DNA from: Escherichia coli
Lineage (GTDB): Bacteria; Pseudomonadota; Gammaproteobacteria; Enterobacterales; Enterobacteriaceae
Assembly: GCF_050320075.1 (NCBI RefSeq)
Contig: NZ_CP190018.1
Direction: 5' to 3' (one strand)
DNA: 64,000 nucleotides
Below the pieces are notes generated by a model, which was not told the origin of the DNA, searched no databases, and saw nothing but the letters and a program-made list of their open reading frames with translations. A program made the translations under genes and the position numbers. The stretch's first letter is position 1; each line of letters begins with the position of its first letter. Below are positions 5,937 through 36,066 of the stretch, piece by piece.

Positions 5937-6155
5937 ATGTTTGTAACGAGCAAAAAAATGACCGCGGCTGTTCTGGCAATTACCCTGGCAATGTCTCTGA
6001 GTGCCTGTTCTAACTGGTCTAAACGAGACCGTAACACCGCAATTGGCGCGGGTGCAGGTGCATTAGGCGGTGCAGTACTGACCGATGGCAGTACGCTGGG
6101 TACATTAGGTGGTGCTGCCGTCGGTGGTGTTATTGGTCACCAGGTCGGTAAATAA
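5937..6155 (+). CDS. osmB: Osmotically inducible lipoprotein B, 72 aa
   Basis: Lipoprotein signal peptide with lipobox LSAC, followed by a Gly-rich body (GAGAGALGGAV...); length 72 aa. Confidence 0.9.
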   Translation: MFVTSKKMTAAVLAITLAMSLSACSNWSKRDRNTAIGAGAGALGGAVLTDGSTLGTLGGAAVGGVIGHQVGK

Positions 6156-21592: not shown

Positions 21593-21868
21593 GTGGCTTC
21601 CATCTCCATCAGTTGTCCCTCCTGCTCAGCTACTGAAGGCGTGGTGCGTAACGGTAAAAGTACTGCCGGACATCAGCGCTATCTCTGCTCTCACTGCCGT
21701 AAAACATGGCAACTGCAGTTCACTTACACCGCTTCTCAACCCGGTACACACCAGAAAATCATTGATATGGCCATGAATGGTGTTGGATGCCGGGCAACCG
21801 CCCGCATTATGGGCGTTGGCCTCAACACGATTTTACGTCACTTAAAAAACTCAGGCCGCAGTCGGTAA
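21593..21868 (+). CDS. insA: IS1 InsA (transposition repressor / N-terminal part of the transposase), 91 aa
   Basis: [46 protein letters not shown] with a zinc-finger motif; canonical InsA. Confidence 0.9.
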
Positions 21869-22290
21869 CCTCGCGCATACAGCCGGGCAGTGATGTGATT
21901 GTCTGCGCTGAAATGGACGAACAGTGGGGCTACGTCGGTGCTAAATCACGTCAGCGCTGGCTGTTTTACGCGTATGACAGGATACGGAGGACGGTTGTGG
22001 CGCACGTCTTCGGTGAACGCACTCTGGCCACACTGGAGCGTCTTCTGAGCCTGCTGTCGGCCTTTGAGGTCGTGGTATGGATGACGGATGGCTGGCCGCT
22101 GTATGAATCCCGCCTGAAGGGAAAGCTGCACGTAATCAGCAAGCGTTACACTCAGCGCATTGAGCGACATAACCTGAATCTGAGACAACATCTGGCAAGG
22201 CTGGGACGGAAGTCACTGTCGTTCTCAAAATCGGTGGAGCTGCATGACAAAGTCATCGGGCATTATCTGAACATAAAACACTATCAGTAA
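21787..22290 (+). CDS. insB: IS1 InsB frame; expressed as the InsAB' transposase by -1 frameshifting at A6C (21844..21850)
   Basis: ORF overlapping the insA 3' end in the -1 frame; contains [21 protein letters not shown] typical of InsB. Confidence 0.85.
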
Positions 22291-32864: not shown

Positions 32865-33670
32865 TGGAACGCTACGAATCTCTGTTTGCCCAGTTGAAGG
32901 AGCGCAAAGAAGGCGCATTCGTTCCTTTCGTCACGCTCGGTGATCCGGGCATTGAGCAGTCGCTGAAAATTATCGACACGCTAATTGAAGCCGGTGCTGA
33001 CGCGCTGGAGTTAGGTATCCCCTTCTCCGACCCACTGGCGGATGGCCCGACGATTCAAAACGCCACACTGCGTGCCTTTGCGGCAGGTGTGACCCCGGCA
33101 CAGTGCTTTGAGATGCTGGCACTGATTCGCCAGAAGCACCCGACCATTCCCATCGGCCTTTTGATGTATGCCAACCTGGTGTTTAACAAAGGCATTGATG
33201 AGTTTTATGCCCAGTGCGAGAAAGTCGGCGTCGATTCGGTGCTGGTTGCCGATGTGCCAGTGGAAGAGTCCGCGCCCTTCCGCCAGGCCGCGTTGCGTCA
33301 TAATGTCGCACCTATCTTTATTTGCCCGCCGAATGCCGACGATGATTTGCTGCGCCAGATAGCCTCCTACGGTCGTGGATACACCTATTTATTGTCACGT
33401 GCGGGCGTGACCGGCGCAGAAAACCGCGCCGCGTTACCCCTCAATCATCTAGTCACGAAGCTGAAAGAATACAATGCTGCGCCTCCATTGCAGGGCTTTG
33501 GTATTTCCGCCCCGGATCAGGTAAAAGCAGCGATTGATGCAGGAGTTGCGGGCGCGATTTCTGGTTCGGCCATCGTTAAAATCATCGAGCAACATATTAA
33601 TGAGCCAGAGAAAATGCTGGCGGCACTGAAAGCTTTTGTACAACCGATGAAAGCGGCGACGCGCAGCTAA
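32864..33670 (+). CDS. trpA: Tryptophan synthase alpha chain, 268 aa
   Basis: ORF trimmed to [22 protein letters not shown]; ATG overlaps the trpB TGA by 1 nt. Confidence 0.95.
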
Positions 33671-33676
33671 TCCCAC

Positions 33677-33704
33677 AGCCGCCAGTTCCGCTGGCGGCAT
33701 TTTA
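33677..33704 (+). terminator. trp operon terminator (trp t)
   Basis: cagccgccagttccgctggcggc hairpin followed by atttt. Confidence 0.8.
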
Positions 33705-34050
33705 ACTGTCTTTAACGAAGCTGGAAAAATCCTAAATTCATTTATTATTTATCTTTTTACCGTTTCGCTTACCCCTGTCGAACGTAAACTTACGTCTTTT
33801 TTCAGCCCAACAGTAATATAATCAAACAAATTAATCCCGCAACATAACACCAGTAAAGTCAATAATTTTCTCTAAGTCACTTATTCCTCAGGCAATTGTT
33901 AATATATCCAGAATGTTCCTCATAATATATTTTCCCTCTTTCTTCTCGTTGCGCTTAATTTGACTAATTTTCATTAGCGACTAATTTTAATGAGTGTCGA
34001 CACACAACACTCATATTAATGAAACAATGCAACGCAACGGGAGAAATAAC

Positions 34051-34230
34051 ATGGCCGAACATCGTGGTGGTTCAGGAAATTTCGCCGAAGACCGTGAAAA
34101 GGCATCCGACGCTGGCCGTAAAGGCGGTCAGCATAGCGGCGGTAATTTTAAAAATGATCCGCAACGCGCATCTGAAGCGGGTAAAAAAGGCGGTCAACAA
34201 AGCGGTGGTAATAAATCAGGCAAATCCTGA
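34051..34230 (+). CDS. yciG: KGG-repeat general stress protein YciG, 59 aa
   Basis: ORF trimmed to MAEHRGGSGNFAEDREKASDAGRKGGQHSGGNFKNDPQRASEAGKKGGQQSGGNKSGKS; repeated [RK]KGGQ motifs. Confidence 0.8.
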   Translation: MAEHRGGSGNFAEDREKASDAGRKGGQHSGGNFKNDPQRASEAGKKGGQQSGGNKSGKS

Positions 34231-34315
34231 TTCACCGTTAATTATTAATATCAGCTGATAAAGATAATTGCATCTGCGGGCCGTATGGCTCGCAGTGATT
34301 TCACTGGAGAAAAAT

Positions 34316-34816
34316 ATGAATATGAAGACCATTGAAGATGTATTTATTCACCTGCTTTCAGATACCTACAGCGCAGAAAAACAATTAACCCGGGCACTGG
34401 CAAAACTCGCAAGAGCAACATCAAACGAAAAATTAAGTCAGGCTTTTCATGCGCACCTCGAGGAAACTCATGGACAGATTGAACGTATTGATCAAGTTGT
34501 GGAATCTGAATCGAACCTGAAAATTAAGCGCATGAAATGTGTGGCAATGGAAGGTCTCATTGAAGAAGCTAATGAGGTTATCGAAAGCACCGAGAAAAAC
34601 GAAGTGCGTGATGCCGCACTGATTGCCGCAGCGCAGAAAGTCGAGCACTATGAGATCGCCAGTTACGGGACATTAGCGACGCTGGCTGAACAATTAGGTT
34701 ACCGTAAAGCAGCGAAGCTTCTGAAAGAAACTCTTGAAGAAGAAAAGGCCACCGACATCAAACTGACTGATCTGGCACTTAATAACGTAAATAAGAAAGC
34801 CGAAAATAAAGCCTGA
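34316..34816 (+). CDS. yciF: DUF892 ferritin-like stress protein YciF, 166 aa
   Basis: ORF trimmed to MNMKTIEDVFIHLLSDTYSAEKQL; paralogous to the downstream yciE. Confidence 0.85.
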   Translation: MNMKTIEDVFIHLLSDTYSAEKQLTRALAKLARATSNEKLSQAFHAHLEETHGQIERIDQVVESESNLKIKRMKCVAMEGLIEEANEVIESTEKNEVRDAALIAAAQKVEHYEIASYGTLATLAEQLGYRKAAKLLKETLEEEKATDIKLTDLALNNVNKKAENKA

Positions 34817-34861
34817 AATATGAACTTTAACTTTTAGTCATTTTATAAAGAGGACATTTTC

Positions 34862-35368
34862 ATGAATCGTATTGAACATTATCATGACTGGTTACGTGAC
34901 GCCCACGCAATGGAAAAGCAAGCCGAATCTATGCTTGAATCCATGGCTAGTCGTATAGATAATTATCCTGAACTACGCGCTCGTATTGAACAACATCTTA
35001 GTGAAACCAAAAACCAGATTGTTCAACTGGAAACTATTCTTGATCGTAATGACATTTCACGTTCAGTCATTAAAGATTCCATGAGTAAAATGGCTGCGCT
35101 TGGGCAGTCAATCGGTGGTATATTCCCTTCTGATGAAATAGTCAAAGGCTCTATTAGCGGATATGTCTTCGAGCAATTTGAAATCGCCTGTTACACCTCA
35201 CTATTAGCAGCAGCAAAAAATGCCGGTGATACAGCTTCAATTCCAACCATCGAAGCGATTTTAAATGAGGAAAAAGAAATGGCCGACTGGCTGATTCAGC
35301 ATATTCCGCAAACAACTGAGAAATTTTTAATTCGCTCTGAAACTGATGGCGTAGAAGCGAAGAAATAA
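34862..35368 (+). CDS. yciE: DUF892 ferritin-like stress protein YciE, 168 aa
   Basis: 168 aa; similar architecture to YciF (four-helix-bundle signature ...HAMEKQAE...). Confidence 0.85.
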   Translation: MNRIEHYHDWLRDAHAMEKQAESMLESMASRIDNYPELRARIEQHLSETKNQIVQLETILDRNDISRSVIKDSMSKMAALGQSIGGIFPSDEIVKGSISGYVFEQFEIACYTSLLAAAKNAGDTASIPTIEAILNEEKEMADWLIQHIPQTTEKFLIRSETDGVEAKK

Positions 35369-35427
35369 TACCCTTTATACCATGTCCTTATTGACCCCGT
35401 ATATTACGGGGTCGTTTTTGTGCGGAA

Positions 35428-36066
35428 TTAAAAACGATATCCTGCTGAGAACATAAACACCCACGGATCGAGGCGTACGCTATCGTGTTGCTGTGCACCG
35501 CCCAGTTTATAATTGGCGGTGGTATCAATATCCATGTACCACACTGACATGTTAACCAACCAGTCACGGTTAATCAGATAATCAACCCCCACCTGCCCGG
35601 CAGCTCCCCAGGAGTCTTTAAGACTGAGATCGGAAAGCCCCGCCTCTTTGCCATGATCGTTAAATCCATTATCAAAGAAGGTGGTGTAGTTAATACCTGC
35701 ACCAACGTAAGGACGGAATTTGCTGCTGGCATCACCAAAATACCACTGCGCCATCAGTGTTGGCGGCAGATGATGAACGGTTGCAATATCGCCGGTCGCC
35801 CGGGTGCCGATTTTATGGCGGAACGGCGTCGCTGCCAGCAATTCCACACCAATGTTATCGGTCGCCATATAAGTAAACGTCAGGCCCAGTTGCGTGTTAT
35901 TGGTCACGCTGAATCCACCCAGACTTCCTAACGTACCACCAGCACCTTCTGTTGGACGTACGGTTGCAGACCCTGCACGCATAAAAAATTCGCCTGCTTC
36001 ATGCGCATAGGCACTGCCAGAGAGAAGAGTTGTTACTGCCAAAGCCGCCACTGTTAACTTTTTCAT
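35428..36066 (-). CDS. ompW: Outer membrane protein W, 212 aa
   Basis: Signal peptide MKKLTVAALAVTTLLSGSAYA and beta-barrel ending in the aromatic residue F (…SAGYRF). Confidence 0.9.
   Translation of the reverse strand: MKKLTVAALAVTTLLSGSAYAHEAGEFFMRAGSATVRPTEGAGGTLGSLGGFSVTNNTQLGLTFTYMATDNIGVELLAATPFRHKIGTRATGDIATVHHLPPTLMAQWYFGDASSKFRPYVGAGINYTTFFDNGFNDHGKEAGLSDLSLKDSWGAAGQVGVDYLINRDWLVNMSVWYMDIDTTANYKLGGAQQHDSVRLDPWVFMFSAGYRF

Follow-up and report, generated by a model that had tools for sequence, protein, structure and literature searches.

The yciGFE locus, which in Salmonella enterica extends into katN, is said to have been described for that organism and for Escherichia coli K-12 by Robbe-Saule et al. 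in 2001 and by Beraud et al. in 2010. It encodes the small KGG-repeat protein YciG and two ferritin-like proteins of the DUF892 family, YciF and YciE, and its reported control is by RpoS, H-NS, and McbR. The subject here is the corresponding region of an E. coli chromosome, contained in a 64,000-nucleotide (nt) stretch of contig NZ_CP190018.1 (RefSeq assembly GCF_050320075.1) that is called the window throughout. This region has the same three genes in the same order, in the same place between trpA and ompW, and with the same promoter core; unlike Salmonella, E. coli lacks katN, the window included, and the only protein differences from K-12 are YciF I153L and YciE H140E. Taken as a whole, the locus is very probably best explained as the E. 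coli yciGFE general-stress operon. This operon is known and well annotated, and the reading given in an earlier note on this DNA is correct and not new. The one small new detail is a conserved hairpin after yciG that carries an RNA 3' end.

The products of the locus also have relatives outside it. YciG resembles the KGG-repeat hydrophilins, such as YmdF and STM14_1829 of E. coli and Salmonella and the fungal con-10 protein, which are likewise short, rich in Gly, Lys, and Ser, composed of tandem KGG repeats of ~22 amino acids, induced by stress or by sigma factors, and reported to be intrinsically disordered. GsiB of Bacillus subtilis is another example. YciG differs from the other KGG paralogues in being the only one that is linked to DUF892 genes. 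YciF and YciE share with ferritin, Dps, bacterioferritin, and rubrerythrin a four-helix bundle with a buried, carboxylate-rich two-metal site, and ferritins use a single bridging Glu, as does Salmonella YciF with its ferroxidase chemistry. Unlike the 12- or 24-mer cages of this superfamily, the Salmonella YciF oligomer is ~110-120 kDa (bioRxiv 10.1101/2023.01.20.524870). The YciF ligands also differ from those of the canonical members by including Q/H54 and by lacking paired ExxH motifs. At the level of RNA, leaky internal terminators or 3' stabiliser hairpins within operons can set unequal gene dosage. As in this general class, a GC hairpin separates two cistrons of yciGFE, and RNA ends shortly beyond its stem with a stronger signal than at the operon end; the U-tract of the E. 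coli hairpin is weak by comparison.

On the numbering of the window, the locus is laid out as follows.

33678..33703, + strand: trp t, the intrinsic terminator of the trp operon (hairpin 33678-33698, T-run 33700-33703)
33704..33959, no strand assigned: AT-rich upstream region, the presumed zone of H-NS silencing and McbR(YncC) anti-silencing
33960..33994, + strand: predicted yciG promoter (-35 TTGACT 33960-33965, 16-bp spacer, C(-13) 33981, -10 TAATTT 33982-33987, TAA 33988-33990, predicted start G33994)
34039-34044, + strand: ribosome-binding site of yciG, GGGAGA
34051..34230, + strand: yciG, ATG to stop, 59 amino acids, KGG-repeat hydrophilin / general stress protein
34239..34298, + strand: structures between yciG and yciF (AT-rich hairpin 34239-34270; GC hairpin 34274-34282 / 34287-34295; RNA 3' end 34298)
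34306-34309, + strand: ribosome-binding site of yciF, GGAG
34316..34816, + strand: yciF, 166 amino acids, DUF892 ferritin-like four-helix-bundle protein
34862..35368, + strand: yciE, 168 amino acids, DUF892 paralogue of yciF
35392..35419, + strand: operon terminator (hairpin 35392-35414, T5 run, RNA 3' end 35417)
35428-36066, minus strand: ompW, convergent neighbour of yciE

The identity of the locus is established by direct comparison. Positions 33600-35500 are 100% identical to several chromosomes in a megablast search of 5,426 complete E. coli genomes, and RefSeq annotates exactly trpA, yciG, yciF, yciE, and ompW, in that order, on this identical DNA. The open reading frame list and the raw sequence likewise give trpA-yciG-yciF-yciE, all co-directional on the + strand, followed by the convergent ompW. 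(The mechanical list of reading frames contains longer, GTG- or TTG-started versions of yciG and yciF; the shorter starts are backed by RefSeq, by the ribosome-binding sites, and by PDB entry 2GS4, which starts MNMKT.) NCBIfam has no family for YciG, YciF, or YciE though RefSeq names all three; consequently, the RefSeq names must stem from other evidence types. The trpA gene ends at 33670 and is followed by trp t, which has a 9-pair stem with 7 GC pairs in a terminator scan and folds at -18.1 kcal/mol (z -4.3); the K-12 Term-seq 3' end that is assigned to trpA, 1316383, falls at window 33703 (PMC7815308). An Rfam match to sroD at 33649-33703 (+), which extends from the last bases of trpA over the trp t hairpin, scores 21.9 bits against a gathering score of 50 and was rejected as most likely a terminator look-alike. 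The earlier note had placed the yciG-yciF-yciE triplet immediately downstream of trp t. All of these features are found at the coordinates given, with the one qualification that "immediately" here covers a 348-nt AT-rich gap between the trp t 3' end and yciG. The GC content of this gap is 0.32 versus 0.53-0.56 in trpA, and that of the yciGFE DNA is ~0.40, below its flanks. The gene identities, the paralogy of YciF and YciE, and their fold family all stand on the Pfam and PDB matches and the RefSeq names, and osmB, which had been noted elsewhere in the window, lies at 5937-6155 (+).

YciG matches the Pfam KGG family (PF10685) in two stretches, with an E value of 8e-18 and 64.8 bits versus a cut-off of 20.4. 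The protein consists of two 22-amino-acid repeats, NFAEDREKASDAGRKGGQHSGG and NFKNDPQRASEAGKKGGQQSGG, which are identical at 14 of the 22 positions; Gly accounts for 24% of its residues and Lys+Arg for 19%, and no more than 3 residues are both bulky and hydrophobic. A homologue search returned 1991 proteins, and the RefSeq name is "con-10 family general stress protein". YciG has been described as a hydrophilin that is intrinsically disordered and is associated with motility, acid, and heat phenotypes; recently it has also been reported to interact with the cyclic di-GMP phosphodiesterase YhjH. A Pluralibacter homologue (L129) was excluded from the comparisons, as it has no DUF892 gene nearby and adjoins wrbA/yccJ-type genes, a position that makes it probably a ymdF-type paralogue.

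YciF and YciE both match DUF892 (PF05974; cut-off 23.7 bits) over nearly the whole 159-position profile: YciF at positions 1-158 (E 5e-52, 176.7 bits) and YciE at positions 4-158 (E 6e-51, 173.0 bits). The two are only 24% identical to each other (E 1e-6), which marks them as old, distant paralogues. Each has a crystal structure that differs from the window protein at a single residue, PDB 2GS4 for YciF (E 2.5e-98, I153L) and PDB 3OGH for YciE (E 4e-107, H140E), and the four-helix-bundle fold is taken from these entries and the literature. A HMMER search of the full database with YciF relates 10,417 clusters (at 50% identity) at E<=1e-3. In an alignment of 57 full-length YciF-like representatives together with the window proteins, the conserved polar positions of YciF are D16, E21, H47, E50, T51, Q/H54, R57, E84, and D99 in the first part of the protein and Q107, E110, H111, E113, Y117, E142, E143, and D147 in the second. 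The window YciF has every one of these, Q54, E113, and E143 included, as do the YciF proteins of Salmonella and Klebsiella. YciE keeps E18, H45, E48, Q52, E104, E107, Y111, E136, and E137, of which Q52, E107, and E137 align with YciF Q54, E113, and E143; Q105 replaces YciF H111. Metal-ligand residues, whose absence had been put forward as grounds for doubt, are present in both proteins. The canonical paired E...ExxH di-iron motif was not found in YciF, since helix D has E142-E143 without a His at +3 (T/A146). H52 is occupied by E, Q, K, or R in relatives, and position 54 is Q in 35/57 and H in 21/57. A Rubrerythrin match falls below threshold (E 0.006, 17.5 versus 22.8 bits), and no Pfam ferritin match is seen. 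Given this non-canonical ligand set, YciF and YciE are filed as ferritin-like proteins, not as ferritins or rubrerythrins.

Work on the Salmonella orthologue has shown what this site can do: YciF binds iron and is a ferroxidase, activities that need Q54, E113, and the bridging E143, and its overexpression in a cspE mutant lowers reactive oxygen species, an effect that an iron chelator mimics (bioRxiv 10.1101/2023.01.20.524870). The earlier statement that the functions of these proteins are not established is therefore partly superseded, through the data on Salmonella YciF; it stands for YciE and, largely, for YciG.

Transcription of yciGFE is σS-dependent, H-NS-silenced, and McbR/YncC-activated, as has already been published. 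In an rpoS mutant of E. coli O157:H7 EDL933, stationary-phase expression of yciG, yciF, and yciE is 205-, 405-, and 38-fold lower, respectively, and H-NS is listed as a regulator of yciGFE in the same strain (PMC2907692). In Salmonella, yciG is down in an rpoS mutant by quantitative reverse-transcription PCR (PMC7161692) and up >20-fold in an hns mutant (PMC4223078). These mutant data argue for the RpoS dependence that the earlier note had proposed and against constitutive expression (PMC2907692, PMC7161692). PMC7705038, citing Beraud 2010, states that McbR/YncC binds the yciG promoter and activates the operon. The gel-shift probe used for McbR, called the "yciF promoter", was made with primers spanning the interval between the yciG end and the yciF start. 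In addition, CspE has been reported to bind and stabilise yciF transcripts.

The promoter of the operon emerged only through conservation across genera. The upstream region of E. coli was aligned with those of Salmonella (L124), Klebsiella (L126), Enterobacter sp. Bisph1 (L049), and Superficieibacter (L072); addition of E. asburiae (L130) and a further enterobacterial locus (L131) gives a set of seven. The only upstream bases that are invariant in 7/7 loci are C33981, T33982, and A33983 (C-13/T-12/A-11) together with T33987, T33988, and A33989 (T-7/T-6/A-5). The -35 TTG is invariant in the five-locus set, in which the spacer is always 16, and is found in 6/7 loci overall. The C(-13)-TAATTT-TAA arrangement is a hallmark of σS selectivity, and the σS -10 consensus attributed to Weber (2005) and Typas (2007) is said to comprise C-13, T-12, A-11, T-7, and a TAA-type start of the discriminator. 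All of these elements are present at 33981-33990, though the strict consensus is matched at only 7/11 positions. This -10 region, CTAATTTTAA, lies 61-70 nt upstream of the yciG ATG, and, with its C at -13, it is a conserved RpoS-type -10 of the kind for which a search had been proposed. The SalCom start site of Salmonella yciG is 55 nt before the ATG (PMC7913699, Table 2); this is G3446 in L124, which aligns with E. coli G33994 and so lends the predicted start independent support. A candidate from a σ70 scan, TTAATA-16-CATAAT at 33899-33926, is not conserved in the other genera and was set aside. Two 16-bp direct repeats, GACTAATTTTCATTAG and GACTAATTTTAATGAG, 17 bp apart at 33962-33994 (+), overlap the -35 and -10 of yciG, and a third, weaker copy is seen at 34009-34022 in the yciG 5' untranslated region.

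Further upstream, ATATAT, a motif reported from chromatin immunoprecipitation sequencing of McbR (PMC13343897), occurs at 33902-33907 and 33925-33930. An RcsB-like box, CTGGAAAAATCCTA, is located just past trp t at 33721-33734 (+), with a left half that is degenerate in E. coli. In Salmonella the homologous position, 340 nt before the yciG ATG, is occupied by the RcsB box TAAGAAAACTCCTA, and Salmonella yciG is up log2 3.0 on RcsB expression (PMC7913699). The right half-site, TCCTAAAAT, is found 6 times in the window versus 14.6 expected, which is not above chance, and the box is offered as a candidate and a lead only. In a 2026 preprint, yciGFE and osmB are among the genes listed as possible targets of an as yet unnamed activator that responds to osmotic shock and has the TCCTAAAAT half-site in its motif.

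The new detail lies in the 85-nt spacer between yciG and yciF, which folds at -25.2 kcal/mol in total (z -2.7). Its GC hairpin has a 9-bp stem plus two outer pairs, with 7 GC pairs, one G-U, one A-U, and a GUAU loop, and a GC hairpin is present at the equivalent place in 7/7 enterobacterial loci (z -2.7 to -4.5 in five loci and -1.8 in Salmonella). Five loci have the core CUGCGRG...CUCGCAG in common, in which inner pairs show compensatory C-G to U-A changes, one in Klebsiella and one at the adjoining pair in E. asburiae; the hairpins of Enterobacter sp. Bisph1 and Superficieibacter have unrelated stems. A UAUUUU-type tract comes right after the stem in 5/7 loci (Klebsiella, Enterobacter sp. 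Bisph1, Superficieibacter, L131, and Salmonella), and the E. asburiae hairpin has no adjacent U-tract. K-12 Term-seq data contain a 3' end, 1315788 (minus strand), classed as "orphan" (PMC7815308, supplementary file 1), which lies on a 61-mer identical to window 34248-34308 and therefore falls at window 34298. This end has 44,522 reads in LB at an optical density (OD) of 2.0, a label inferred from the place of the sheet in the file, and 86,472 in M63; it is missing from the LB OD 0.4 list (PMC7815308). A literature search that missed several key papers found no description of an internal 3' end or hairpin in yciGFE. The same spacer contains a 30-bp AT-rich palindrome, AATTATTAATATCAG/CTGATAAAGATAATT with centre ATCAGCTGAT, at 34240-34269 (+), inside the McbR gel-shift probe; it is not conserved in Salmonella or Klebsiella.

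These elements can be assembled into a sequence of events. RNA polymerase containing σS would start at ~G33994 from TTGACT-N16-C-TAATTT-TAA. Many transcripts would end, or be trimmed back, at the hairpin after yciG (34298), yielding a yciG mRNA of ~305 nt, while the remainder would read through to 35417 to give a yciGFE mRNA of ~1.42 kb. With many transcripts ending after yciG, YciG would exceed YciF and YciE. YciG would then act either as a protectant of the hydrophilin type or as a partner in interactions. For E. coli YciF, and probably also for YciE, in which the carboxylate ligands are kept, the role would be that of a small non-cage ferroxidase clearing Fenton-active iron when cells are under stress from stationary phase, osmotic change, acid, bile, or peroxide.

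A number of points count against parts of this picture. At the promoter, the E. coli start at ~G33994 is placed by homology; a strict σS -10 scan (KCTAYRCTTAA) of the 380 nt upstream gives no unique match, its best hit, 9/11 at 33948, being without A-11 and T-7, so that the consensus scan is uninformative; and a generic σ70 scan missed the promoter at 33960-33994. At the hairpin, the sequence after the E. coli stem is UGAUUUC, a weak U-tract with only 3 U's, and the 3' end at 34298 may come from processing or exonuclease stalling instead of termination. The internal 3' end has 86,472 reads versus 24,586 at the yciE terminator in M63, and Term-seq read counts are not transcript stoichiometries. 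For the proteins, a ferroxidase role of E. coli YciF, and any such role of YciE, would be carried over by analogy from Salmonella YciF, and the ligand set is not the canonical ExxH pair (H52 variable, position 54 Q or H). Salmonella YciF forms no ferritin cage, and in bile a Salmonella mutant with yciF deleted grows as the wild type does (bioRxiv 10.1101/2023.01.20.524870). The molecular role of YciG is putative, and its motility phenotypes as reported vary by serovar. Finally, ~13% of complete E. coli genomes are without the operon, which makes yciGFE dispensable.

The 3' end after yciG could be a processing product, with the full-length yciGFE mRNA cut in the spacer or trimmed 3'-to-5' and the GC hairpin shielding the yciG fragment, in which case the hairpin would set mRNA half-lives, not read-through. 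This is possible, if rather unlikely. The three U's after the E. coli stem, the missing adjacent U-tract of E. asburiae, and the failure of a generic terminator scan to call the yciG-yciF hairpin all fit such an origin, as do the location of the 3' end 3 nt beyond the stem, which is typical of exonuclease stalling, and the reported binding and stabilisation of yciF transcripts by CspE. However, the tracts that directly follow the hairpin in Klebsiella, Bisph1, Superficieibacter, L131, and Salmonella look like those of intrinsic terminators, and termination fits better with the LB OD 2.0 data, which list the internal 3' end and not that of the yciE terminator. A more specific proposal, in which the hairpin at 34274-34295 would be a leaky terminator under regulation, setting YciG expression apart from that of YciF/YciE and serving as the site of action of the cold-shock-domain antiterminator CspE, is speculative and judged unlikely; it would explain the low YciF of Salmonella cspE mutants by stress raising read-through with promoter activity unchanged. 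Still another arrangement would have two transcription units, yciG alone up to the hairpin and yciFE from its own McbR-dependent promoter in the spacer. The strong RNA 3' end between the genes, the McbR-shifted probe spanning the end of yciG and the start of yciF, the 30-bp AT-rich palindrome centred on ATCAGCTGAT, and E. coli strain A3, which has yciFE and has lost yciG, are in keeping with it. This arrangement is nevertheless very doubtful: no σ70-like promoter is called in the spacer, the palindrome is not kept in Salmonella or Klebsiella, all three genes are RpoS-dependent together and are treated in the literature as one operon, and the yciF start codon comes only 17 nt after the 3' end, which leaves little room for a promoter downstream of the hairpin.

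A further question is the chemistry of YciF and YciE, which might instead be peroxide-linked di-metal proteins, either rubrerythrin-like reducers or metal donors or partners of the Mn-catalase KatN, with the ferroxidase activity an in vitro side reaction. The gene right after yciE encodes a Mn-catalase in Salmonella, Klebsiella, E. cloacae, and E. asburiae; YciF forms no iron-storage cage; and the Rubrerythrin match is there, if weak and below its cut-off (E 0.006). The neighbours of YciF-like genes, counted within <=3 kb at 120 loci from many phyla, include response regulators (26 loci), heme catalase (15), DUF72 (10), Fpg/Nei glycosylase (8), short-chain dehydrogenase (8), Mn catalase (7), and topoisomerase IB (7), and a catalase gene of either kind, heme or Mn, is found at 22/120. 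This recurrence fits a role in oxidative or dormancy stress and keeps the peroxide-linked alternative alive. Such a neighbourhood nevertheless indicates a shared stress context, not a shared reaction, and since E. coli and locus L131 keep yciGFE without katN, the YciF/YciE pair works without KatN. In addition, iron binding and ferroxidase activity hinge on residues of the di-metal site, and an iron chelator mimics YciF overexpression. The peroxide-linked explanation is thus regarded as improbable.

The general-stress operon with ferroxidase-like YciF and YciE remains the preferred reading. The operon terminator has 10 pairs in the terminator scan, folds at -18.3 kcal/mol (z -3.1), and lies 23 nt after the yciE stop and 9 nt before the stop codon of the convergent ompW. 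The K-12 Term-seq "primary" 3' end of yciE, 1314669, corresponds to window 35417 and is listed once, with 24,586 reads in M63 (PMC7815308). A K-12 3' end on the other (+) strand, 1314965, corresponds to window ~35121 on the minus strand, antisense inside yciE; it comes from supplementary file 2 of PMC7815308, which was presumed to be the Rho-dependent (bicyclomycin) set. This suggests that transcription from ompW runs on past the shared hairpin, antisense into yciE, until Rho halts it ~300 nt in. If ompW is highly expressed, such read-through could cause convergent interference on yciE.

Among relatives, the Salmonella order is trpA-yciG-yciF-yciE-katN-ompW, and the window proteins are 86-87% identical to those of Salmonella (YciF, 86%). 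In Klebsiella, E. cloacae, and E. asburiae, yciGFE-katN is found by cytochrome bd genes, at another chromosomal site. Thus katN directly follows yciE in Salmonella, Klebsiella, and Enterobacter, and E. coli and L131 are without it. Outside Enterobacterales, no YciE or YciG partner was found beside YciF-like genes among the 120 loci of diverse phyla; the triplet is consequently a lineage-specific arrangement, not a family-wide module. In E. asburiae a 67-amino-acid gene is called between yciF and yciE (L130 3299-3502, +); it has no Pfam match, and the loci of E. coli, Salmonella, and Klebsiella do not contain it. In L131 (3873-4859, -), yciGFE is flanked by CinA-like and DUF421 genes, which recur by YciF-like genes of distant phyla, at 7 and 6 of the 120 loci, respectively (e.g. 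Bacteroidota L017 and L058), hinting at a wider conserved stress or dormancy neighbourhood.

Within E. coli itself the locus varies. Most of the region is present in only 4,715 of the 5,421 matching genomes, leaving ~700 without yciGFE. In these the alignment breaks off within the last part of trpA, and 50 bp beyond trpA comes a divergent ompW allele of 217 amino acids that has its own hairpin terminator; a prophage interrupts ompW in 345 of them. The divergent ompW has 82% DNA identity versus 97-99% in the flanks (window 33655-36066 compared with L128 2560-3286 and L002 6056-6262), a state that resembles a haplotype of ancient or imported origin more than a simple deletion. Other strains differ in other ways: strain A3 (L003 1572-1915) has lost yciG alone and kept yciF and yciE, and strain EC96 has, from trpA to ompW, an IS1 and no more of the operon than a DUF892 remnant. 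Elsewhere in the window, an IS1 copy (InsA-like and InsB-like reading frames of 91 and 167 amino acids) occupies 21593-22290 (+), flanked by cobO/btuR and rluB. In its place the otherwise near-identical strain CFSAN061763 carries two hypothetical genes, and it has an IS4 after adhE that is not in the window; the window is therefore from another strain.

With an annotated locus, crystal structures of both DUF892 proteins, and published control by RpoS, H-NS, and McbR, the finding in itself matters little. The modest remaining value of the locus lies in the biochemistry of YciE and YciG, and DUF892 is a very large family (>10,000 clusters at 50% identity) whose members often adjoin catalases. 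The internal 3' end could set the ratio of YciG to YciF/E, and it gives the reported effect of CspE on yciF a concrete site at which it might be exerted.

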